Source: Felis catus (Eukaryota). Taken from it: a stretch of DNA of 64,000 nt. Below, in pieces: positions 8,054-62,424 of the stretch; the stretch's first letter is position 1; each line of letters opens with the position of its first letter. The notes under the pieces are model-generated. The model searched no databases, was not told the DNA's origin, and saw nothing but the letters and a program-made list of their open reading frames with translations. Made by a program: the position numbers and the translations under genes. The stretch is taken from the NCBI RefSeq assembly GCF_018350175.1, contig NC_058368.1, forward strand, positions 100,628,001 to 100,692,000, in the 5' to 3' direction.

Positions 8054-8332
8054 GTGCATACGCATGCGTTTTGACCAGTGACATTTGAAATGAGGAATTA
8101 AAATTCTCTTTAATCCACCTGTGATTTTATAGAAATAATGCAGGAAGTGAACCATGCGCTTTCTCCATAGCCTGAAGGAAAATGCACTACAACTTGGCCT
8201 TCTCTTCCCCGGGTGGTACTTCCAGACATGTAAGTAGGGCTCAAGGGTGGCAACAATAAATTCTTAGCCTAAAAAAAAACTGAAAAAAAAAAAAATACTG
8301 CACACAGTATTAAAAAGGGGAGGGAAGGAGGA

Positions 8333-15238: not shown

Positions 15239-16135
15239 AGAACAAAAGTCTAATCATTTATTCTCATTTGATCGGCTACTCTACGTTTCCCTAAAAGTTG
15301 ACCCACTTGGCTCCAGATCTTACTTCTATGGTGAAGGAGCCATATTGTTTCCCTGCCACCCTCAGGAATCTCATGCAGACAAAACCCTACCCTCGTTGTC
15401 ACTGCATGAGCATAAGCCCAGCCCACTGCACTGCATGTGGGAAGTGGGGCTTGTACATTTCTGCAAGACCCTCAGGTGAATTGTCTATGAAGTCAACGAA
15501 GCACAAGCTTGACCACCACAAAGCCCTGGACTTAACTTTTCGTTCATAATTCTGTATCAGTTTGCTTAAAGAAGGCCTCCAAATCGATAAACTTTAAATT
15601 CCAAAGACCTGGATCTAGTTGTGGCAAAAACAAAGTCACTGGAACAAAGAATATAAAGATATTCTTACCCCCAGTAAGCCTCAGCACCCATACTTGATGT
15701 TCATCTTTTAGTGATATTTACATGGTGTCTGAAAGAGAAACTGAATACTTAAAGTGTTTGCACCGTCTGGGATTCTATGGCCTGAAGCCCCATCCCCATT
15801 AGACTTTCTCAAATAATGATCAATCCAGATCCAGGAAGCCTCTCTGGAACAGGACAGGTATAGAAGTTAACAGAGAAGATCAGATAGTTCTCACTTTTTC
15901 ACGTGGGATTTCAAAAGACGGGCTTCTTCCCTTATGAGTCCCCTTTCATTTGCTAACATCACGGTCAGTGCACAAGGCTTAGTCGAATTGGCTGCTAAGA
16001 TCCTAAGTGATGTGAGAAAGTTGACTGTGGAGGCAAATGTCCTCAAGGGCAATATCACGTAACTTCCGGTTTCCTTTACTGTGAAGAGCCCAAGTGCCCA
16101 GTTTTTTGTTTTTGTTTTCCTTTTTGTTTCTTTAG

Positions 16136-16245
16136 AACAAGCCAATTGCCACCGGCAGCCTATTCCATTTGAAAACAGTAGCATCAACTGCAGATTGGTG
16201 AAAATCCGGCTGCAAGTTCCCATCTGCCTTCAGGTACAAAAAGAG
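16136..16245 (+). other. Candidate exon 0 of putative spliced transcript (alternative donor after 16233)
   Basis: Long T-rich tract ending tttag at 16135; donors CAG|gtacaa and GAG|gtaaaa; open frame EQANCHRQPIPFENSSINCRLVKIRLQVPICLQ(VQKE) ends in phase 0. The acceptor tract is partly a TTTTG microsatellite, so it may be incidental. Confidence 0.25.
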
Positions 16246-16930
16246 GTAAAAGAGGCACTTTGATTTTCAAAGAAGAGGTGTTCGCGCTTAATTAGAAGTC
16301 AGTGAAATCCAGGGAGACTCTGTAATTATTTTAAAGACCCCTTGTGTGAAATCTGCAGTACCCTTGTGAAATATGCCACTGTCACAGCTGCCCTCTGATG
16401 AGGCTTGGGTTCCAATCTGTGCCTCTCCAGCAGTCTGTGCGACCATCGCTGCCAGGTGGCATCAGCCTTCTCACAGCGTCCTCCTCCTGTCTGCCATGAG
16501 GGAATAAAGCCGCATCTCCCTGGGAAGCTTCTACTGGTGGCTCAGAAGAAATCTGTCTGCGGAGAAGAGATGGCAAGCGTCCTTGGAAATGTGAATTATT
16601 GCTGTCATCAGCACATTGCCTCCCCTTTGTATTGAACCTTTGACATTGAAACAGTTTGCTGCTACGTAGTTTCGATGTGTGTCGTTTGCCTTGGGCTTGC
16701 TGAACTATGGAGCTTCAGAGCTAGTTGTATGTGGCTTTGTGGGAAGCCGAAAAATCTTCGGAGACTGCGTGGAAAGGAAACCGGCAAACTGATACTCAGG
16801 GAAGTTGCCTGAAATGTTTGCAGTTACCAATTTATTATTTATTTTAAGAACGTACCCCCAGAAATAACTATTCTAACTGAACTGGCGCTAAAATGAAAAA
16901 AACAAAAAATTGACATCTTTGCTACTCCAG

Positions 16931-16969
16931 AGACAAGTAGACAATCCTATCTATGCTTTACCCTTGGGG
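16931..16969 (+). other. Candidate micro-exon A (39 nt, phase 0-0)
   Basis: Acceptor catctttgctactccag|, donor GGG|gtaagc; open frame RQVDNPIYALPLG. Confidence 0.45.
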
Positions 16970-17068
16970 GTAAGCATATCCTCAAAGAAAGAAAAAAGAA
17001 AGCAAAGGAAAGGAAAGGAAAATGCTGAGAGCATCTGTTTGCTTCGGCCTGCATCTTCTGTGCTCCAG

Positions 17069-17110
17069 GGACAGTGTGGCAATTGTGCTGACAAAACAGA
17101 GTTTATGGAC
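17069..17110 (+). other. Candidate micro-exon B (42 nt, phase 0-0)
   Basis: Acceptor gcatcttctgtgctccag|, donor GAC|gtaagt; open frame GQCGNCADKTEFMD. Confidence 0.5.
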
Positions 17111-17281
17111 GTAAGTCATTTGTGCCAATATAGCTTCTGCATAAAGCTGTGGGTGCAGTTGGTGACTGAGAAACCAGCCATTTTGCAAGAAGACATGTTT
17201 TCACCTTCAGAAGATCCTCAAAGATTTTCCCTCAACCTTTCACTATTAAATAATCCATATTTGGCTGTTTTTTCTTCCTAG

Positions 17282-17398
17282 ACCATCGGAAAGACCTTGA
17301 GGCGATCCTTGATCAATTTATATCCCAATGTCGTATGACATCGAGGAAGAAATTTTGAACTGCTCCAAAAATCACTTTTGAAGGAATTACCTATGATG
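17282..17398 (+). other. Candidate exon C (117 nt) with one in-frame TGA in the phase-0 frame
   Basis: Strong acceptor ggctgttttttcttcctag|, donor ATG|gtaagc; 4 CpGs in 117 nt; frame 0 reads TIGKTLRRSLINLYPNVV*HRGRNFELLQKSLLKELPMM. Confidence 0.55.
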
Positions 17399-18167
17399 GT
17401 AAGCATTTATAAAGCAGAGTAAATACATAAGGTTTCTACCTACATTAGTGCTCCCTAGCCATCATATGTGACCATTAGGGAAATACAGTACTCACAAAAA
17501 ACAAACAAACAAACAAACAAACAAACAAATAACCTTAATCCTTTGGAAGAAAGTTTAAGCAGCCAAGTCATAAAGTCATTTTTCTACCGGTGGCTCTGCA
17601 TCAACCCTCCCAAAACAACATTATTTTTGGGGGTTTTTTTTCCAAATATTTTCTTTCTTTGACTTGAGGTTTTTTTTTTTAATATGATGGAGAAAGAAAT
17701 GTAATCCAAGTGCAAGATAATAGAGAATAATTCATTTCCATGACTGTGCTTTGTTTTCCTTTTCACATCTGTGACAATCAGTCTTCAATACGTACAGTGC
17801 ACTTAACTCATAGAACTGATCTTTCTCTGCAGGGCTGGGACTGAGGGGAAGGTGAAAACGCACAGAGACAAGCACTCTCAGGGCCCTGCCGGGGCCCTTG
17901 AACTTTGCTCCCTTCCTGCCTTCCTTGCTTCCCCTGAGCCCCAGCCTGATGGGTCCCAGTCCCATAGAATTGACAGTCAATCTGCTAAACTCACATTCAA
18001 GTAGCTGTTATTTTGTCTAATCACAACCGTCAGGTGACAGTTAATTCCTCGCTCTCCATTCCGGTGAAAGATAATGATAATGGGAGGGCTCTCTTCTCAA
18101 ATTCTAACTACAAAGAATTATGCAAATACTTTCTATCCTATATGGGCAGAAAACTCAGGCCATTTAT

Positions 18168-18393
18168 GGGGTGCCTGGGTGGCTCCGTCAGTTAAGCGTC
18201 CTCCTCTTGACCTCTGCTCAGGTCGTGATCTCACAGTTTCTGAGTTTAAGCGCCACATCAGGCTCTACGGTGATGGCAATGGCCTGGGGCCTGCTTGGAA
18301 TTCTGTCTTTCGCTCTCGCTGCCCCTCCCCTGCTATACTCATGCGCGCTCTCTCTCTCTCTCAAAATAAATAAATAATCTTAAAAAAAAAAAA
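18168..18393 (+). mobile_element. SINEC
   Basis: Full body and A tail. Confidence 0.95.
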
Positions 18394-18675
18394 AGGGGTG
18401 CCTAGATGTCAGTTAAGCAACTGACTTCTGCTCAGATCATGATCTCGCAGTTTGTGAATTCGAGCCCTGCTCTGTGCTGACAGCTCAGAGCCTTGAGCCT
18501 ACTTCAGGTTATGTGTCTCCTTCTCTCTCTGCCCCTCTCCCTCTTGCATTCTCTCTACCTCTCTCTCTCAAAAATAAATAAACATTAAAAAAGAAAAAAG
18601 AAAAGAAAAGAAAAGAAAAGAAAAGAAAAGAAAAGAAAAGAAAAGAAAAGAAAAGAAAAGAAAAGAAAAGAAAAA
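18394..18675 (+). mobile_element. SINEC with expanded (GAAAA)n tail
   Basis: Directly follows the previous tail. Confidence 0.95.
18592..18675. repeat. (AAAAG)n pentanucleotide repeat, about 15-16 units
   Basis: Direct near-perfect run. Confidence 0.95.
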
Positions 18676-18804
18676 ACTCATGCCATTTTTACTGAGACAG
18701 TTTTCTTCTTAATTTTGTGTGGAAATTATCTTGTGTGCCAATTATTGTATGATTCTGTTTTCCTAATGACAATAGATGGTTGATGTCAAAAACTGTAACT
18801 TTGA

Positions 18805-19025
18805 GGGGCACCTGGGTGGCGCAGTCGGTTAAGCGTCCGACTTCAGCCAGGTCACGATCTCGCGGTCCGTGAGTTCGAGCCCCGCGTCAGGCTCTGGGCT
18901 GATGGCTCGGAGCCTGGAGCCTGTTTCCGATTCTGTGTCTCCCTCTCTCTCTGACCCTCCCCCGTTCATGCTCTGTCTCTCTCTGTCCCAAAAATAAATA
19001 AACGTTGAAAAAAAAATTAAAAAAA
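18805..19025 (+). mobile_element. Young SINEC_Fc
   Basis: CpG-intact body; perfect TSD aaaaactgtaactttga. Confidence 0.97.
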
Positions 19026-19281
19026 AAAAACTGTAACTTTGACTACAAGATTCAGGATCACTTTTTCTCATCATTGTGATTAAAGCGAATGACAAGACCA
19101 TGGCTTTCAAAGCCTTCTACATTCTTACAAATTCTTTGATTGGTCCATATTCGTGCCTTAGTTCTGATGCTGAAACCCACTGTTTAGATTGATCTCTACG
19201 CAGAATTAGCTCAGGCAAGTGACGATCCTTCTGCACTTTGTGTTACCTGAATAGTGATCAGTAATGAAAAGATAACAATTT

Positions 19282-19502
19282 TTTCCTTTTTTTTTTGTTT
19301 TTGTTTTTGTTTTTTGTTTTTTGAGAGCAAGAAACAGTGCAAGCAGGGGAGGGGCAGAGAGAGAGAGGGAGAGAGAGAATCCCAAGCAGGTGCTACACCC
19401 GGCACAGAGCCCAATCCAGGCTCCATGTCACGACTGTGAGATCATGACCTGAGCCAAAATCAAGAGTGGGACACTTAACGGACTGAGCCACCCAGGTGCC
19501 CC
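19282..19502 (-). mobile_element. SINEC
   Basis: Antisense body with a TTTTTG-type tail. Confidence 0.95.
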
Positions 19503-19934
19503 AAAAAGTTAAAAACCTTTTGCTGTAACCAGATGTTAACTAATATTGAAAGCATTTAGAAAAGATGACAATCTTAAATCTTGTGTTTAACAATACGTAT
19601 CAAATTATGGTTTGAAAATCTATTGCTAATATCACTGTAAAGTCTTAGACGGGACCTTTAAGGCATGGCTGATGTGAGAAGTTACCATTGCTTTTCAATC
19701 AAAGCGTAAAGGCTGAGTCCAAGGCAAAAAACATAAATTATGATTTCTTGGCATGGTGTGTTTATGAGGCAAGGATTCTGTGGAGAGAAATGCTTGGAGG
19801 TTCATTTCTGAGGCATTTCAGAAAAACTAAACAGAGGAGTCCTGGACCGTTTTCAGATGGGGAAGAATTCCAAATTATCCTTTACAAGGGTGGGCCTCAC
19901 AACCTCCAGTGAGGGCTTGTCTTCTTGTTTTTAG

Positions 19935-20051
19935 ATACATCCAAATCTTAGTCACTTGTCCTTTTCTCCAGAATCCACCTGGAGAATCTTTCCTTTTACC
20001 ACATCATGTTCTTCCTCAGCATATTCAGTGGATGCTGCTACAATACCAGGG
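19935..20051 (+). other. Candidate exon D (117 nt, phase 0-0; alternative acceptor at 19971)
   Basis: Acceptor cttgtcttcttgtttttag|, donor GGG|gtgaga; open frame IHPNLSHLSFSPESTWRIFPFTTSCSSSAYSVDAATIPG. Confidence 0.35.
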
Positions 20052-21087
20052 GTGAGAATTCATTCTACATTGACCATAGCTTGAGTGGTTATAGGCTAAA
20101 AGAAATTGTCAGCAATATAGACAGGGTTCCAGCATAGGAGATGGGAGAAAAGAGGCATCTCCCTGCTCGGGGTTGACGCAATGCTCCTCACACCTCTCAG
20201 GCTGCAGGGAGACCAGGTGAAACACTGTCTCCATTCATGACTCCCAGCCTTCACGTCAGGTAGAAGCTTCTAGAAGATTCCCCCCCCCCCCCCCAGCAGA
20301 AGCACGGGCTCTCTGGAGACCATGGTGATCTAAACTGTGGAAAACACTATCCATCAGAGAGATGAACACGCCCCGAGAGCAAATCCAGCAGAAGCCTCAC
20401 CACTTTTTTCTTTTCTGAAGACACCTCAAAAGCCTTCTCTCATCGCTTATAGAAAGCGGTAAATTAGGTCAGCCGGCTCAGAATGTGGAAGGTTCTGGCA
20501 GGCAGGGCAAGCTGAGTTACTGTCTTCTGTAACCTTCCCTCTCGCCCAAGAGTCATACATAATGGAGAAACAGGTAAATAAGAATTAAATACCTGATGTC
20601 TCTTTTCTCTTCTTTCTGTCCTTTGATTACACCACTATTTTATTTATGATTCCCCAAAGAGAAGAAAACATCCCTTATGTGCCATTGCTTTTGTAAATTG
20701 TTAAAGAATCACAAAAATGAAATACTTCACAACGGGTTTTTCTCTATTGCCTCTTTCCTGCTGTCCTGAGCCTTTAAAGTGATGGTTCACCTGCACAGGC
20801 TCCCCTCCGCCACCGCCACCCTCTCCCCCTACCTCCCAATAAAACTGGCCTTCATCTCGCTGTATCTTATTTCCCAAAGGAGATCAAACGGATCCAAAGT
20901 TGATGCGAGGGTTGGTGTTCACCAGCCCTGTGTCTGTGTTTTGCTCTACATAATACTGTTTTGTGTCTCAGGGGCAGTGTTTAAAGTAGACAGAGCACAT
21001 TTCTTTGTTTTGTGTTTGCGTAAGAATCGAGTAAGCAGCTCCACACCATGAGCAATAAATAGAGAAAATGCAAACAGCTCAGGTTTG

Positions 21088-21205
21088 ATTTTTTTTTTTT
21101 AATTTCTATTTTAGGTAGGCGTTCCACACCCAACATGGGGTTTGAACTCACAACTCTGATATCAAGCACTGCATGCTCTACTGACTGAGCCAGCCAGGCA
21201 CCCCA
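21088..21205 (-). mobile_element. Short older SINEC
   Basis: ccacacccaacatggggtttgaactc...gagccagccaggcacccc. Confidence 0.85.
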
Positions 21206-21514
21206 GTGGTTTGAAAGATTATATTCCCAATGGCTTGGGTGGGAGGGGGGGTGAGGAGAAAATGCACATCGGAATTATCTGGGCAATCTCTCAAGGTTTC
21301 ACAATTCTTTGCCCAAATAAGTAATATTAGATATAAGGCTCTCTTGCTCTGAATCTCTTTGGAAGTTTCTAGCATTTCATTTTTTTCCTACAAACAAAAT
21401 TTCAGGATTTTTTTTTTTTATATATATCACATATCCTCATCACCAGGAAACTTAAGAGATTGGGGGGATACAGGTTTTTCTTTCATGTAATCTTCCAGCT
21501 GGAGAGAATTTCTC

Positions 21515-21743
21515 TTTTTTTTTTTTTATAAATTTTTTTTAACGTTTATTTATTTTTGAGACAGAGAGAGACAGAGCATGAACGGGGGAGGGTCAGAGAG
21601 AGAGGGAGACACAGAATCTGAAACAGGCTCCATGCTCTGAGCTGTCAGCACAGAGCCCGATGCGGGGCTCGAACTCACGGACCGCGAGATCATGACCTGA
21701 GCCGAAGTCGGACGCTTAACCGACTGAGCCACCCAGGTGTCCC
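21515..21743 (-). mobile_element. SINEC_Fc
   Basis: Antisense body; TSD gagaatttctctt. Confidence 0.97.
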
Positions 21744-22114
21744 GAGAATTTCTCTTAATAGAAAGGATTTGGAGTGTGAATAACAGGTTAGGTGATGTCA
21801 AGAAGAAACCAACGTGATACCTGAATGCTGAGGCCTTCATGGAATAATTCGTAACAGATTTAAGTGGCGGGAATACAGTGAGAAATAAACTCCGCCAAAA
21901 ATGACAGGCAGGATTCTTTTCTGACTCAAGGTTAGTTACCAACATTTCTGACTTTCTACCCTTCGAGATTTGGGGGGAACACCATTCTGTCAGAGCAGAA
22001 TAAGGCATACTTGAGGAAGAAATAAAGCACAAAAGACAGGGCAAGGTACACAGAGAAGTCAGTAAGGGGTATTTTACTCATGGGAAGGCAAGTCTCGGAA
22101 CTCAGGAAAAGTGT

Positions 22115-22310
22115 GGGGCACTTTAGCTCAGGACTTCAGCTCAGGACATGTTCGCACCGTTTGTAGGTTCGAGCCCCGTGTCAGGCTCTGCTGACAGCTT
22201 GGAGCCTGGAGCCTGCTTCAGATTCTGTCTGTCTGTCTGTCTGTGTCTCTCTCTATCCCTTCCCCACTTGTGTTTGGTCTCTGTCTCTCAAAAAATAAAT
22301 AAATGTTAAA
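22115..22310 (+). mobile_element. SINEC with rearranged 5' end
   Basis: Body from gacttcagctcagg onward; duplicated agctcaggac. Confidence 0.85.
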
Positions 22311-23030
22311 AACTTTTCTTTTTAAAGGTGCAAATTTCTCTCACATTCGTTCATTGAATTCACTTCTCTGCAGTCTGTCGAACATGACAACCTAGAGCTT
22401 AATTTTCCTCAGTGAGTCTCTGCCCTGTGTGCCCTCACGGTGTGTGAACTGTAGTTTTCACAGATAGTCTTTATTTTACCCCATAACGATGTACGTTACA
22501 TGTATGTATGTTACAGCGAACTATATTATGCTGTGTATCTACTCATATCATGTACCTAAGAATCGTACAGGCAAAATCATGTTCTGTATGGGCACTTTAA
22601 GAGATTTCGAGAGTACTCTTGGCTTTATTCAATTTTCATTTTACACACTGTACAGATTAACCCCCGTGAATGGTCACCGTCATAATTATCCTGCTTTAAG
22701 TTCGGGTGCCTAAGCACAGACAAATCACAGCTACAGCACCAGAAAGATCCCACAGTTGCATTCGTGCGAAGCCTGACAGGGATTTTTGAGGAATCCCAGA
22801 AGATGAGTGAAAGGTACCAATTTCCAAAAGGAGGATAAAGATATATTCCAGAAATTTAAAATTTTAAGTCTCATTTGACATTGGTCTCCAGCAAGAAAAA
22901 CAATTTTAAGATATTTAAGTAACTCGGAAGCATTTAGAAAATGGTTACTGTCAGCCAGCATGATTGCTCTAAGAATAATTCATAAGAGGCAAAGCTAATT
23001 TCATTTTTCAATCATACTACTCACCTGACT

Positions 23031-23230
23031 TTTTTTTTAAAGTTTATTTATTTTTGAGACAGAGAGACAGAGCATGAACGGGGGAGGGACAGAGAGAGGG
23101 AGACACAGAATCCGAAACAGGCTCCCAGCTGTCAGCCCAGAGCCCGACGCGGGGCTCGAACTCACGGACTGCGAGATCGTGACCTGAGCTGAAGCCGGAC
23201 GCTTAACCGGCTGAGCCACCCAGGTGCCCC
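23031..23230 (-). mobile_element. SINEC_Fc
   Basis: TSD actactcacctga. Confidence 0.97.
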
Positions 23231-23369
23231 ACTACTCACCTGATTTTAAAGAAAAGCCATAAAGATGGTATATCATAATTTTGTGGCATGCTAGTGGGGA
23301 AAAAATGAATAATATTAGTTGATGAATTGCATCAAATTAGACCAAGCTTTCAGTTGAACTTTCACTAAT

Positions 23370-23830
23370 TTGCACTTAGTTCCATCCTGTCCAACATTTT
23401 TATTTACATCATGGATGAAGTACAGAACAATTAAGCCTTATTGGTGGATTACAAAAAGCTAAACAGAAGAACAATTCAGACAATTAGTATTAGCAGCATA
23501 ATCCTCAGGAAACTGAATTTCAAAAGCAAAGCTAATAAGACTTGATTTAATAAGGAAAAATGTAAAACTCCTCACTAAGGTCCAGATATTAACTCTCCTT
23601 ACACAGAAGTGGGGAGATCTGTCCTAAACACAGATCTTGGGGAAAGAACTGGACTTTACGTTGACTGAAACTGTGACATGAGCCAATCATGTGATGACTC
23701 AGCCACAAAAGCAACAGCAATCTTTGGTTACCCTTCCAGTCCCCAAGCAAAAGGGAAGTTATCTGCCCACCAAGCTCCATAGTAGTTGACACCACGTGGA
23801 GTATTGTGTTGACTTCAAGGTGACATATCT
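23370..23830 (+). mobile_element. L3/CR1 LINE ORF2 fragment
   Basis: tttaataaggaaaaatgtaaaactcctcactaagg resembles FNKxKCKxLHLG; ccacgtggagtattgtgtt resembles PHLEYCV. Confidence 0.65.
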
Positions 23831-24880
23831 TCAGTCTAACTCATCTTCAACATGACAGCCCTTCACATATCTGATGACAGGTTCCAAGCCACCTTCTCCA
23901 AGGTAAGTATCCCTCTTCTTAATAGAACAACATGATGTGTCACCAAGACGGTTCCTTGTTAATAACATGGCCCCCTCCATGTTTGTCAATATTGCTTTGT
24001 AAATGTGTCCCACAGGATTGGACAGAAAGTTCCAGATGCAGAATGGCCAGCATAGTATCATGTCAGAACCTCATGTGTCCTGTGCAAATTATTCTTATAT
24101 TAATCAAGCCTGAGATAACAGTAAAACTAAGTGCCTATATCATATAGGCGTTTAACTTACAGTAATGCTACTATTACACATTTCAGCAAAAATAAATAAA
24201 AAGGAATAAAGAAAAAATAAATAAAAATCAAGCAAACACATGACTCAGAATAAACACAAGATGAGAACGAGGAATCTGGACACTGATGGGTCATAAATCT
24301 AATATTTCTTATAGTATGGGCTAAGTGTGGTTCAGGAGTTTAAAGATGTGTATTTTTTGTGTTGCTTAGCCTTACCCCTAAATACATTGCTGTCCTTTAT
24401 GGGAAATTACAGAGTTTCAAGTTACCTTGGACGCAACAAAAATGTCTTTTATGTGACTTTTGAGAACCACATAAACCAAACCATAAGAGACTCAAAAACT
24501 GAGAATAAACTGAGGGTTGATGGGGGGTGGAAGGGAGGGGAAAGTGGATAATGGACATTGAGGAGGGCACCTGTTGGGACGAGCACTGGATGTTGTATGG
24601 AAACCAATTTGACGATAAATTTCATATTTTAAAAAAGAGAGAGAACCACATTAGAAACAGCTCTTCTATATATCTTTTTTCTTCTTGGAGTCACCTCACA
24701 TCGTTGAATTTACAGGCAATTTTTAACATGACCAAATGCTTGCTAAATCAATTCTACTTTAGTTTATACTATTAGAGTTGTTTTATTTTGTTTGTACCTA
24801 AGTATAGGATTTTATGTTTATTCTTATTACGTTTCTGCCTATTAAATTTGACTCATCATTCCAGACTTTTGCTTTAGGGG
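23831..24880 (-). mobile_element. L3/CR1 LINE ORF2 fragment, antisense, interrupted
   Basis: Minus ORF ends RYVKGCHVEDELD, like the CR1 C-terminal KYLKGCH motif; aataagaataaacataaaatcctatacttagg near 24800-24830. Confidence 0.6.
24473..24640 (+). mobile_element. Felid L1 3' end (5'-truncated)
   Basis: aactgagaataaactgagggttgatgggg...gagcactggatgttgtatggaaaccaatttgac; TSD gagaaccacat. Confidence 0.9.
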
Positions 24881-25054
24881 ATCAAGGTGCTATTATATTC
24901 AGTCTTGTACTACCTATTTTCCGTGATAAACCAAAACCTGACCTCTCCTTCTTGGTAATTAAGACTTTTGCATTAACTACTATACTTAACATTGAAAAAT
25001 GCACATTTTTTTCCCATACTGTTGGTATTTAAGATTATGTCTTAAAATCAGTGG

Positions 25055-57731: not shown

Positions 57732-59749
57732 TCATTGATATTACTTCTTAAATGTCTTACAAATCTACTTAATTTTCATGATACCCACCACAAACACCAT
57801 AGACCAAATCTCTACCATCTTTCCTTTGGATTACTGATAGAACCCCTCAAATATCATTCTTTGCTCTAATCCTTTTCCTAAAACACTTGAATGGCTCCCA
57901 TTAATCTTAGGATAAAAATTGAAGTCCTTAACTTGAGTTACAGACCCTGCACAAGGCATCCCCTACCTGACTGGCCAACCTCACTCCTATCACATTCCCC
58001 ATCACACTCTACTCTGTCATCACGCTGGCCTTCTTTCAGTTCCTAGAACACTCCATCCCAACCAGGACCTGTACTGCCCTGAACTTCTCTTCCTTCCCTC
58101 CCTTCCTACATAACACTTACCCTTCCTTAAAATCTCAGCTCAAACATCACTTTTTCGAAGAAACCTTTCTGAAGCAGCCTGCTATGCGTCACACTGCAAC
58201 TTTATATTTATGTGACTATTTGATTAATGACCATCTCTCCTGTTATAATCAAAGCTACATGCAAACAATGTCTATATCTTGTTTGCTAAGCATAATATCC
58301 CTAGTACTTAGCATAGCTCCTGGGACTTAGTAGGTACTCATTAAGATATGTTGAATGTGTGGTTCTAATTATGAAATAACGTAATGGTAACATGGCATAT
58401 TTTGCCTACTTTGTGTCAGAATTAATGATCCTAAATGTTTTTAATGAACTCACATCACTGTACATGCTTAGAGAAGAGCTACACGTTCATTGCTAAGAAG
58501 AGACGGTTACTGGAACATAAAGTGATTTCTACGTATGAGTCACAGTCATAAGAGGCCAGTCTCGGAGTGAGAAGGAGTGGACATTGGTTAAGTACAAGAA
58601 GATAGGGGAGAGAAATGAGAATATTACCACACAGCATCTCTGATATCCCCTAGCTTTGCTGCCAAGATACTATCTGAAGAGCAAAGTTACATTCGTGTCA
58701 GGCCTCAAACCTGGTTGTCACTGGCTGGGTACTGCTTCAAGCCTACTCTCTCTGGGCCAAGTACGGTCAAGGCTTTCAACCATGAAAAGATGAAAACATC
58801 ACTCTTGGACCTTCCCTCTCTCACCCTGAAAATGCTTTTGTATATTTTATAAACCACAGAGATCACGAGGCAGATGAGAAGACGCAGAATGCCAGGGAGT
58901 GGGGGAGAATCGAAGTGCTTAAGCTTAGGAAGGCAAACCATCCAAGTTTGCCAATTACTTATTTCTGCAATATTTCAAAGTATCAACCACAACTGATACA
59001 CCACTACCGTTAAAAATCGCAGTTTGCCATTATAGACATAATTCAGCTGTGTGGGTTCAGATAGAAACTAGATGTGGGACAGGACCACTAACCGAAAGAA
59101 AGATGTATGAAGTCTATGTAAACAATAAGTCAGAAATCTTTCTAATGCTGTCAGGTAACCAGTATGTCACATTTTCCCCCATGAGGGGAAACAAAATCTA
59201 ATGATCACTGACTCTATCTGAAAACAGCCAAAATCACATCAACAGATGGGTGGTTGTCAATTAGCCATTTGTTAACCGGGGTGGATGTCTTGGCAGCTCT
59301 CACGCATCCCCAACAAAATGAAGGAGGGAAGGCATGAACGAGGATGAAGGCGTGAGTTCTCCTGAATCTCATTTTTAATTTTTCATGACATTTTATATTC
59401 TCGATAGAAAAATAATTTGGTGGGAAAATAATGACCGGAGAAAAAGAGAATCGTGTCCAACATAAATCGGAGTCTCTCCAAGGCCTTTATGGGTTGGCGT
59501 ATTTCTCAGAGAAGTTACCTTTCTGACTTGAGATCTGCTGTTGTCAGAAACATCAAAGGAAGAGACGGCAGCCTTAAGGAGCTCTTTCTAGTTATAAAAA
59601 TTGCAAGCATTTTAATGTATAATAAAATCTGATCGTTGCTGTTCTCCGAATAGTACTGATTCTCATACCGGTTTTTTCATTAGGACATTAACAAATGTTA
59701 ATGTTCGAGAGCAAATCTGAAGACCGAAAAGAGAGCGAAACTATCTCTA

Positions 59750-60780
59750 AGATGAGTTTCACCAACTTTAGACCGAAGTGTATAAGAATCACCAAGATAT
59801 ATGTTAAAAATGGGGATTCCAAGACATGTCTCCATAAAATGTTAATTTAGTAGAACTGAGGTATGGTCATGGAACATGAATTTTAATAAGTACTCCAGAG
59901 GATCCATCTGCAGACTACACTTTAAGAATAACTGTCATGGAAGAAAGGAATTTCGATTGCTCTTAGGCTTCAAATGTTTCAGTTTAAAAAAAAAATGAAA
60001 ACCTTAGTTCTTCAAAACATAGTATAAAGGAGAGACAGAATATTTTCATATCCTTTACTTTTTTTTCATACGATCTATTACCAGCACATACCCATCTAGG
60101 TAGACCAAGTGTTTCACAGACTCTAATGGTCACGAAAATCCCCTGGGGAACTTATTAAAATGTTGATTCTGAGTCAATAAGTCGGGCGCAGAGCCCATAT
60201 TCTGCAGTTCTAATGAAATCCCAGGCGATGCCTATGCCTCTAGATTTCAGACCACACGTTGAGTAGCAGGGTTCTAGAGAATGGTACTCCAGCTTCACAG
60301 GGCACTAGAATCCCATGGAGGCCTAGTCAAAACACAGATTGCTGCCCTCATCCAAGCATCTGATTCACAAGACCACAGAGGTAGAGACTGGAGCCGTGCA
60401 GCTGCAAGTCAAGGACTGCGGGCAGCCACCAAGCACTCAAAGAAACACTATGGAGCCTGGCTCAGTGGGTTAAGCATCGACTCTTGACCTCAGCTTGAGT
60501 CTTAATCTCAGAGTCATAAATTCAAGCCCTGTGTTGGGCTCTGCAGTGGGCGAGGAGCCTACTTCAAAAAAATAAGTAAATAAACAAATAGCCAAAAAAC
60601 AAAGCAGAAACAAAGGCCAGCTCCAAGAAACACAAAATAAGTTCTCCCCAGGGCCTCCTCTGGAGGCCTGGCCCTATCATCACTTTGAGTCGGGGTGATG
60701 CCTGTGGGTTTGCATTCCTAACAAACGCACGAGTGATGATAATGCTGCTGATCCCAGGACGATGCTTTGTAAATTATCAT
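59750..60780. mobile_element. Cluster of MER5-type MITEs, one split by a MaLR-like fragment and a short SINEC (60451-60590)
   Basis: Repeated MER5 motifs (agaatcacc, gaccacacgttgagtagca, aaaacacagattgctg, tttgcattcctaacaa). Confidence 0.6.
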
Positions 60781-62424
60781 TCTGGGCCATATTCTTGCGG
60801 AGGTACTATCACTAATAAATATCTTTCAACACTTAGATTCTCTTTTCTCAAACTCACTGGAGAGGTCTGGGAAACAGCAAAAACATGATATCTCCATGAA
60901 TCGTAGAGGTCAAAATCGTTATCTCCCATGATTTCCCTCCTCTGATCCTTTTGGAACAGTAAAGGACAGGAAAGGTACAGGACAGTGCAGGCCTTCAACT
61001 CAAAACAGACGAGTAAGGACTCGTTTTAGGCGAAGATTAGAGTTCGTGTACTTGGAATTTATACTTCATTTTGCCCTAGTACAAAGCTTTGAAATGATGT
61101 CACTTTACTCGAAAATCTGTAACCTAGTGATCCATAACCAGTGTCATGATAGAGTAACAAGATGGCGGCTCGCGTGGAGCTTGTGCCGAAAGTGGGGAGG
61201 GAATCGTAAATAAATAAATAAGAAAACAATGCCATTTCGTAAGTGATTCGGACAAAGTAGTGTGAGGTGATGAGGAAATTATTCCTTCTTTACATTGGGT
61301 GGTTAGGAGAGGTTTCTCAGAGAAGCTACATGGGTGACAAGAAAAAGTCACCCATGGTGTTCATTAAATGACCTCGCCACCATCATTTATTCTTTTAGCG
61401 TGTGGGTAAGGCATCGTAGACCATTCGTGATGAGAGAGGAACAGGAAAAAATGTGGAAAATCTAACAAATTGGGAGCTGCTTGGAAAATAGGACCGGTGG
61501 GTACGAACGGTGCTGTGGGATTTGGGTTGCCAGAAACTACATGAAGATGTGAGTTTTTCTGGATGCGTTATATACTGAGCCACATCTCTCAACTATCTTT
61601 AAAACCCATGCTTTAAAGCCATCATGCTCCAATCTGGTGAGGTTCTAACCCCAGCTGAGTCGTTGCAGTAGTGAAACACTTAATTATTTTCAGGTTTGAG
61701 CAGCTGCGAGGCCCAGCCCCACAGGCACACACTTCAAAGACTTGGCAGTTGTTCGCAATCTTTCCATTTCTGAAGCAACAAAGAACAGCACTGAACTCCT
61801 GCCAGTCTGGACAACATGGTCAGTCAGGGTTTACCCAGGACCCCCACAAGGCAGACCCGTGTCAGGTTCTTTGGCGAATCGAGAGGAATGCCATGCAGCA
61901 TCCCAGCACCCCAGTGCAAACCACACCCAGCATCCATTTCCTCTCCCTCCTCCACCGAGTCCCACCCCCATTTCTTCCCATCATTCATTTGGATAGATTC
62001 AATTTTAAAGGCGGGCAGAATATCCCAGTCACTCAAGAACAATAGTTGATTCACATCTTCCTGATTGGTTAGATTCTCAAGTGCATCCATACGTAAGTGG
62101 GGGAAATAGGAAGGATATAGGTGCCAGTTTGCGAGTCCCAGCATTACCCTTGGCTAAATGTGTGAAGAGAGGACATTTTTGATTAAGTCGTCTTCAATCT
62201 GCTTTCCTCTATTATTCTTCCTCCCTCTCCCTCTATTATTCTTCCTCCCTCTCCTGTAGGCTTTACACAACACGCTTTTGGTCACCCACATGTGTATTTG
62301 TCCTCCATGACATTTCTAAACTCCGAAATTTCCTCGTTCTCCTTTCTGTGTCACAATCTACTATTCTCTTGGCCATTCTTTTGAATCTCCATTAGGTAAC
62401 TGGCTAGTCTGAAAACTTCATTCT

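Follow-up and report, generated by a model that had tools for sequence, protein, structure and literature searches.

Probable non-coding DNA with strong splice-like sites behind a compact cluster of exon-like segments in the cat genome

The window that we analyzed is a stretch of 64,000 nucleotides from Felis catus (contig NC_058368.1, positions 100,628,001 to 100,692,000), with a GC content of 32-45%. Approximately 21% of it was masked by self-BLAST, mostly as tRNA-derived SINEs, which we take to be the cat-type family. On the basis of the letters alone, it had been predicted that the plus strand hides a locus of four short exons, here called A to D (Table 1), whose lengths are all multiples of three (3n) and which splice into one frame. 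Every coordinate, AG/GT site and length (39/42/117/117) held on re-checking: the acceptor AGs end at 16930, 17068, 17281, and 19934, and the donors start at 16970, 17111, and 17399 (GTAAG) and at 20052 (GTGAGA). Frame 0 is indeed the only one that stays open through A as well as B, and the joined A-D read contains one stop in that frame, the TGA at 17336, with six and three stops in the other two frames. The NPxY and CxxC motifs attributed to the spliced read are also present, in frame 0 of A and of B, respectively. The sequence had further been described as lacking recognizable repeats, and within the window A-D overlap no repeat detected by self-BLAST and have no second copy; the C-D intron contains copies of SINEs as well as an (AAAAG)16 array.

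Table 1. Positions in the window of the exon-like segments, the short putative introns, and the candidate upstream and downstream features
Feature	Length	Position	Strand	Remarks
U1, upstream exon candidate	110 nt	15366..15475	+	Frame leading into A open; contains ATG
Putative ETS site overlapping a bZIP-like half site		16057..16069	-	Matches CGGA-N4-ACGT; candidate enhancer/promoter element
U2, upstream exon candidate	110 nt (98 nt if to 16233)	16136..16245	+	Strong acceptor, weak donor; open; phase fits U1 and A
Segment A	39 nt	16931..16969	+	Bounded by AG and GTAAG; frame 0 contains NPxY
Putative intron A-B	99 nt	16970..17068	+	Frame 0 without stops
Segment B	42 nt	17069..17110	+	Frame 0 contains CxxC
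Putative intron B-C	171 nt	17111..17281	+	Frame 0 without stops until the acceptor TAG
Segment C	117 nt	17282..17398	+	TGA in frame at 17336-17338; C donor 60 nt further on
Segment D	117 nt	19935..20051	+	80 nt if the stronger acceptor at 19972 is used
Possible terminal exon (speculative)		20297..20843	+	Strong acceptor at 20297; AATAAA at 20838

The internal acceptor of D at 19972 scores 11.6, versus 8.8 for the site at 19934, and yields a non-3n exon, so that the 3n length of D hinges on picking the weaker site. Moreover, the lengths of the two short introns are also multiples of three, and neither contains a frame-0 stop ahead of the TAG at the B-C acceptor, so that the unspliced DNA reads through as well: its frame is open for 129 codons, starting at 16892 and closing with that TAG at 17281. 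The region equivalent to 16892-17281 (+) is open for 144 codons, via compensating indels, in P0008, one of the homologous ORFs described below. The long open unspliced frame in both the window and P0008 is probably the result of selection by ORF calling.

Splice sites were scored with approximate frequency matrices rather than with MaxEntScan. By these matrices, the donors of A-D rank 15, 75, 22, and 37 among the 3236 plus-strand GTs, and their acceptors 44, 15, 10, and 60 among 4435 AGs. Exon-like pairs above one threshold number 25 on the plus strand of the window and 20 on the minus strand, and A-B-C is both the top three-exon cluster and the sole three-exon chain inside 600 bp on either strand. 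A three-exon chain inside 600 bp occurred in 2/150 order-4 Markov strands, and an all-3n chain in 0/150, at thresholds that were fixed after the data had been inspected. Of 200 Markov null strands, 10 matched the summed score of A-B-C at 600 bp (0/200 with all three segments 3n), 117 at 1.5 kb (9/200 with 3n), and 153 at 3 kb (42/200 with 3n). The cluster thus exceeds chance only modestly, and the excess vanishes at wider spans. In a scan of many windows across the genome, several clusters with this score would be expected by chance, and an all-3n cluster would be uncommon though possible. For the 105 codons of A-D, the probability that the best of the three frames contains no more than one stop is P ~0.06. 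Elsewhere on the plus strand, the window contains a lone 59-nt exon-like segment with a strong acceptor, a GTAAGT donor, and two open frames (8171-8229; tested ORFs in its vicinity had no Pfam match), and a 72-nt segment with a very strong acceptor and all three frames open (2755-2826).

The cluster can be extended in both directions. Joining U1 and U2 to A-D gives a 535-nt chain whose 178 codons include a single stop (P ~0.002 before selection). At an acceptor score of at least 8.5 and a donor score of at least 6, this is the best frame-consistent chain; six exons were reached in 2/250 nulls, and an equal length in 0/250. The donor of U2 is weak (6.1 or 4.4, depending on the site), and when the donor score is raised to at least 7, U2 is lost and the best real chain becomes ordinary, with its exon count equaled in 75/250 and 121/250 nulls. 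It is chiefly the six-exon chain that speaks for coding ancestry, and this chain depends on the threshold. Downstream, the acceptor at 20297 is very strong and lies 245 nt past D. The CGGA-N4-ACGT match on the minus strand at 16057-16069 is unique in the window, for a pattern that was composed after the site had been seen, and precedes the U2 acceptor by 66 nt. Between U1 and U2, the minus strand carries a 60-nt exon-like segment with strong sites (15669-15728), and a divergent minus-strand transcript running from the element near 16060 via this segment is conceivable.

Codon use in A-D gave no sign of a protein. Scored with a human codon table, on which AT-rich genes fall below the average CDS, frame 0 of A-D has a codon log-likelihood of -0.20, compared with -0.21 +/- 0.10 for the non-coding null and +0.22 for the average human CDS. 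The six-exon chain scores -0.11, a value equaled by 12% of nulls, and the score of U1+U2 is equaled by 3.7%. Read from the ATG of U1 to the TGA, the U1-U2-A-B-C frame encodes nine cysteines in 116 amino acids, against a 3.5% background (p=0.02).

Searches of protein collections also returned few relatives. Against 1.84 billion representatives, a phmmer search with the A-C read-through, which reported matches down to 37 bits, gave only three matches, none of them to a named gene. Word-indexed searches of proteins of at least 274 aa left 0/353 candidates for frame 0 and 0/112 for frame 2 at E<=10. For proteins of 37-273 aa, a profile search, with a profile weighted to the A-B region, recovered P0003 and P0005 alone among 8000 scored. 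The queries put to these large collections were confined to frames 0 and 2 of A-C, with the introns included; through A-C, frames 1 and 2 contain 10 and 6 stops. Pfam gave no match at a family's cut-off, whether in the six frames of 13-25 kb or in seven further peptides and 219 of 315 non-repeat ORFs (at least 45 aa) from elsewhere in the window, where nine weak matches had E values of 0.007-0.05. These Pfam searches therefore identified no neighboring gene, nor did the parts of the window that they covered reveal any known coding exon. The best of five PDB searches had E = 0.56, and in the ESM Atlas the unspliced ORF had no usable match, while P0008 had a single, uninformative one of 0.78. 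An exact look-up of six window ORFs in a 15-billion collection, a weak test, found 0/6. Two candidates were set aside along the way: P0004, a repetitive 359-aa ORF matching near the end of intron A-B, was taken as a chance match, and an alternative ancestral frame (A in frame 1, a 43-nt B, and C in frame 0) would require additional lesions in the window and is supported by none of the matches.

The most plausible reading of P0003, P0005, and P0008 is that they are ORFs called on another mammal's DNA, because their alignment to the window is continuous from upstream of A through both introns. The comparison with this homologue was made from translations, and it concerns one lineage, possibly itself a gene loser, sampled through a called-ORF collection that favors long open frames. 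Over A, the translations of P0005 and P0008 place eight codons opposite 35 nt of the window, a net change of -11 nt, and NPxY is gone; their residues at the AG and GT of A are incompatible with those dinucleotides there, and shifted sites are possible. P0003, again judged by its translation, tracks the +1 frame of the window just before the start of B or in its first codons, and frame 0 thereafter. This switch of frame inside B implies a B of 43 nt (+1 nt) in the homologue, where its AG and GT are compatible with retention and the G at donor position +5 is not. Given the length changes in A and B and the alignment of the introns, indels appear to fall in exons and introns alike. Excess conservation of the reading frame had been proposed as a check on the four-exon model. 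P0008 is identical to the window at 10/14 residues in B and at 33/63 in the two introns, not a significant difference (Fisher p=0.16; one lineage, from translations), and the 3n lengths of A and B do not appear to be kept. Scans of metagenomes for orthologous DNA were empty. The locus of A-D would be best explained as single-copy DNA that predates the divergence from another mammalian lineage and that has been evolving without protein constraint. In P0003, the minus strand of C (17293-17328) is joined to the plus strand of intron A-B (16994-17125), which would reflect either a small inversion in the source or a chimeric contig.

Taken together, Pfam, the homology searches, codon use, and the frame of the homologue show no conserved coding potential at A-D. 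The original prediction, of an unannotated gene, lncRNA or unitary pseudogene, is thereby divided. The splice-site cluster does go somewhat beyond chance. The protein part of the proposal is not supported, since codon use is non-coding, there is no annotated homologue in the collections searched, and, judged by the translations of the homologue, neither NPxY nor the 3n lengths of A and B are kept.

Sequencing runs were consulted for signs of transcription. Part of 15300-17480 is contained in 20 of the 24 runs listed. In the five recorded as RNA, the locus shares of 0.40-0.74 are proportional to contig size over genome size (ratios 0.8-1.6); these runs (X2, X4, X5, X9, and X11, labeled metatranscriptomic) behave as host genomic DNA would. 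Several runs guessed to be RNA lie 3-6-fold above the size expectation; they were chosen as top holders, and their shares exceed the 0.05-0.12 that a spliced RNA could supply. The locus shares are accordingly evidence neither for nor against transcription. No Rfam family reached its gathering score over the window. Eight matches fell below threshold, none of them a SECIS element; one, at 21127-21199 on the minus strand, is a tRNA match of 26.9 bits (versus 29) in a SINE-like head.

We favor the reading, with a probability of roughly 0.62, that A-D are non-coding DNA with strong splice-like sites, being either unused decoys or lineage-restricted lncRNA exons beside an ETS-bZIP-like motif. Between decoy exons and a low-level, lineage-restricted non-coding transcript, we would divide the odds about evenly. 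Since the cluster goes somewhat beyond chance, a real spliced unit is possible. On the former view, A-D would never have been committed to splicing; on the latter, they would be internal exons of a transcript that starts at a CpG-poor enhancer or promoter carrying the motif at 16057-16069, is spliced in the order U2-A-B-C-D, ends close to the AATAAA at 20838, and yields no stable protein. A stop that lies more than 50-55 nt before a junction leads to nonsense-mediated decay (the 50-55 nt rule). By this rule, the TGA 60 nt before the C donor would make the RNA prone to decay, as a frame-0 ribosome would halt at 17336. The 3n lengths and the single stop would be a coincidence, selected by the scanning of many windows. 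Against this reading stand the failure of any null to match A-B-C at 600 bp with 3n lengths in two separate tests (0/200 and 0/150) and the six-exon chain, with its one stop in 178 codons and, at one threshold, no equally long chain in 250 nulls. In addition, tiny exons separated by introns of 99 and 171 nt resemble an old compact coding gene more than a typical lncRNA.

These same observations bring in the idea of a unitary pseudogene, in which U1, U2, and A-D, perhaps together with the terminal exon at 20297, were coding exons of old, and the TGA in C is a lesion that possibly arose by CpG decay of a CGA; the other mammal would have lost the gene independently, and earlier. We consider this unlikely, though by no means negligible. 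Four symmetrical 3n segments, a 3n cluster that none of the 200 nulls reproduced at 600 bp, the long chain with its single stop, and a B that is kept somewhat better than the introns (not significantly so) all point toward it, and an exon-intron layout in apparently single-copy DNA and a disabling lesion (TGA 17336) are both present. However, with a single lesion across 178 codons the loss would have to be recent, and intact copies in sister lineages and coding-like codon use would then be expected; we found neither. No intact protein-coding relative emerged from the protein, Pfam, and PDB searches, in which phmmer matches extended down to 37 bits, the queries to the large collections covered frames 0 and 2 of A-C with introns, and the proteins searched were annotated or called ones, and at a donor score of at least 7 many nulls (75/250 and 121/250) reach as many exons. 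As far as the available rows of Table S4 of Hezroni et al. extend (30 of 78 chr5 places), no human lncRNA is placed at chr5 110-130 Mb, an interval estimated from the putative position of the window near 100 Mb of felid chromosome A1, in a part syntenic with human 5q23; the available portion of the supplements likewise has no rows for six candidate neighbor genes.

It is improbable, in our estimation, that the locus is an unannotated gene of six or seven exons without a relative in the searched protein libraries, whether as a 116-aa cysteine-rich orphan or as a gene of ~200 aa whose loss in cats came through a single nonsense mutation and whose loss in another mammalian lineage was independent. 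A young orphan gene of cats or carnivores, with U1-U2-A-B-C encoding the 116-aa protein, the TGA in C as its natural stop, and D and the downstream sequence serving as 3' UTR or going unused, strikes us as quite doubtful. The frame open from the U1 ATG to the TGA, the nine cysteines (p=0.02), and the U1+U2 codon score (matched by 3.7% of nulls) would suit such a gene. They are set against the weak U2 donors (6.1 or 4.4), the broken frame of the homologue, the absence of such a protein from the 1.84 billion representatives (phmmer, A-C read-through), and the absence of the six window ORFs from the 15-billion collection by exact look-up, a weak test; furthermore, if D is spliced, a stop 60 nt before the junction predicts decay. 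Finally, an intact gene with its TGA recoded by selenocysteine or readthrough is scarcely credible: the single in-frame TGA is followed by C, with a CxxC upstream, but SECIS families are absent at the Rfam gathering score in the window and at E<=5 in 17200-25000, no homologue with Cys at the TGA position was found, and codon use is non-coding.

Returning to the non-coding reading, we compared the locus with known systems, and found no paper on it in the literature searched, where it has no name to search by. According to PMC3098058, decoy exons exceed real exons approximately tenfold, and the decoy (pseudo) exons of mammalian non-coding DNA are AG...GT segments of <400 nt with good consensus and no coding signal. 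A-D, in a window with 20-25 such pairs per strand, resemble these; unlike isolated decoys, A-B-C are three within 470 bp and all 3n, which is rarer. The exon structures of lncRNAs turn over fast, according to PMC4408788, and A-D are like the lineage-restricted spliced lncRNAs described there in lying in old alignable DNA, with splice sites and exon lengths that are apparently not kept in the other mammal and a candidate CpG-poor motif upstream. They differ in that their exons and introns are unusually short, and in that the locus is known here from DNA alone. Lost coding genes are a known source of lncRNAs, as set out by Hezroni et al. (2017; PMC5577775). Like the cases treated there, the locus consists of several exon-like segments in a consistent frame, with a single stop, in apparently single-copy DNA; unlike unitary pseudogenes, it has non-coding codon use, and our searches found no intact orthologue or protein family. 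As for the predicted site at 16057-16069, the main text of PMC3464117 reports that the CGGA-N4-ACGT motif localizes to human proximal promoters; the cat site is one base off the most enriched 12-mer of this ETS-CRE composite, and its variant does not occur in that main text.

On the favored reading of A-D as non-coding DNA, the locus would be of small importance: it would add another to the unannotated loci of decoy exons or lncRNAs, and would illustrate that runs of 3n exons appear by chance when reading is genome-wide. Were it an unannotated gene, it would represent either a mammalian gene without an annotated relative or a recent gene loss in the cat lineage. Far downstream of A-D, the highest CpG observed/expected ratios of the window (0.78-0.85, at ~40% GC) occur in non-repeat DNA at 59251-59750 and 60751-61500, and these two segments are possible unmethylated regulatory elements.
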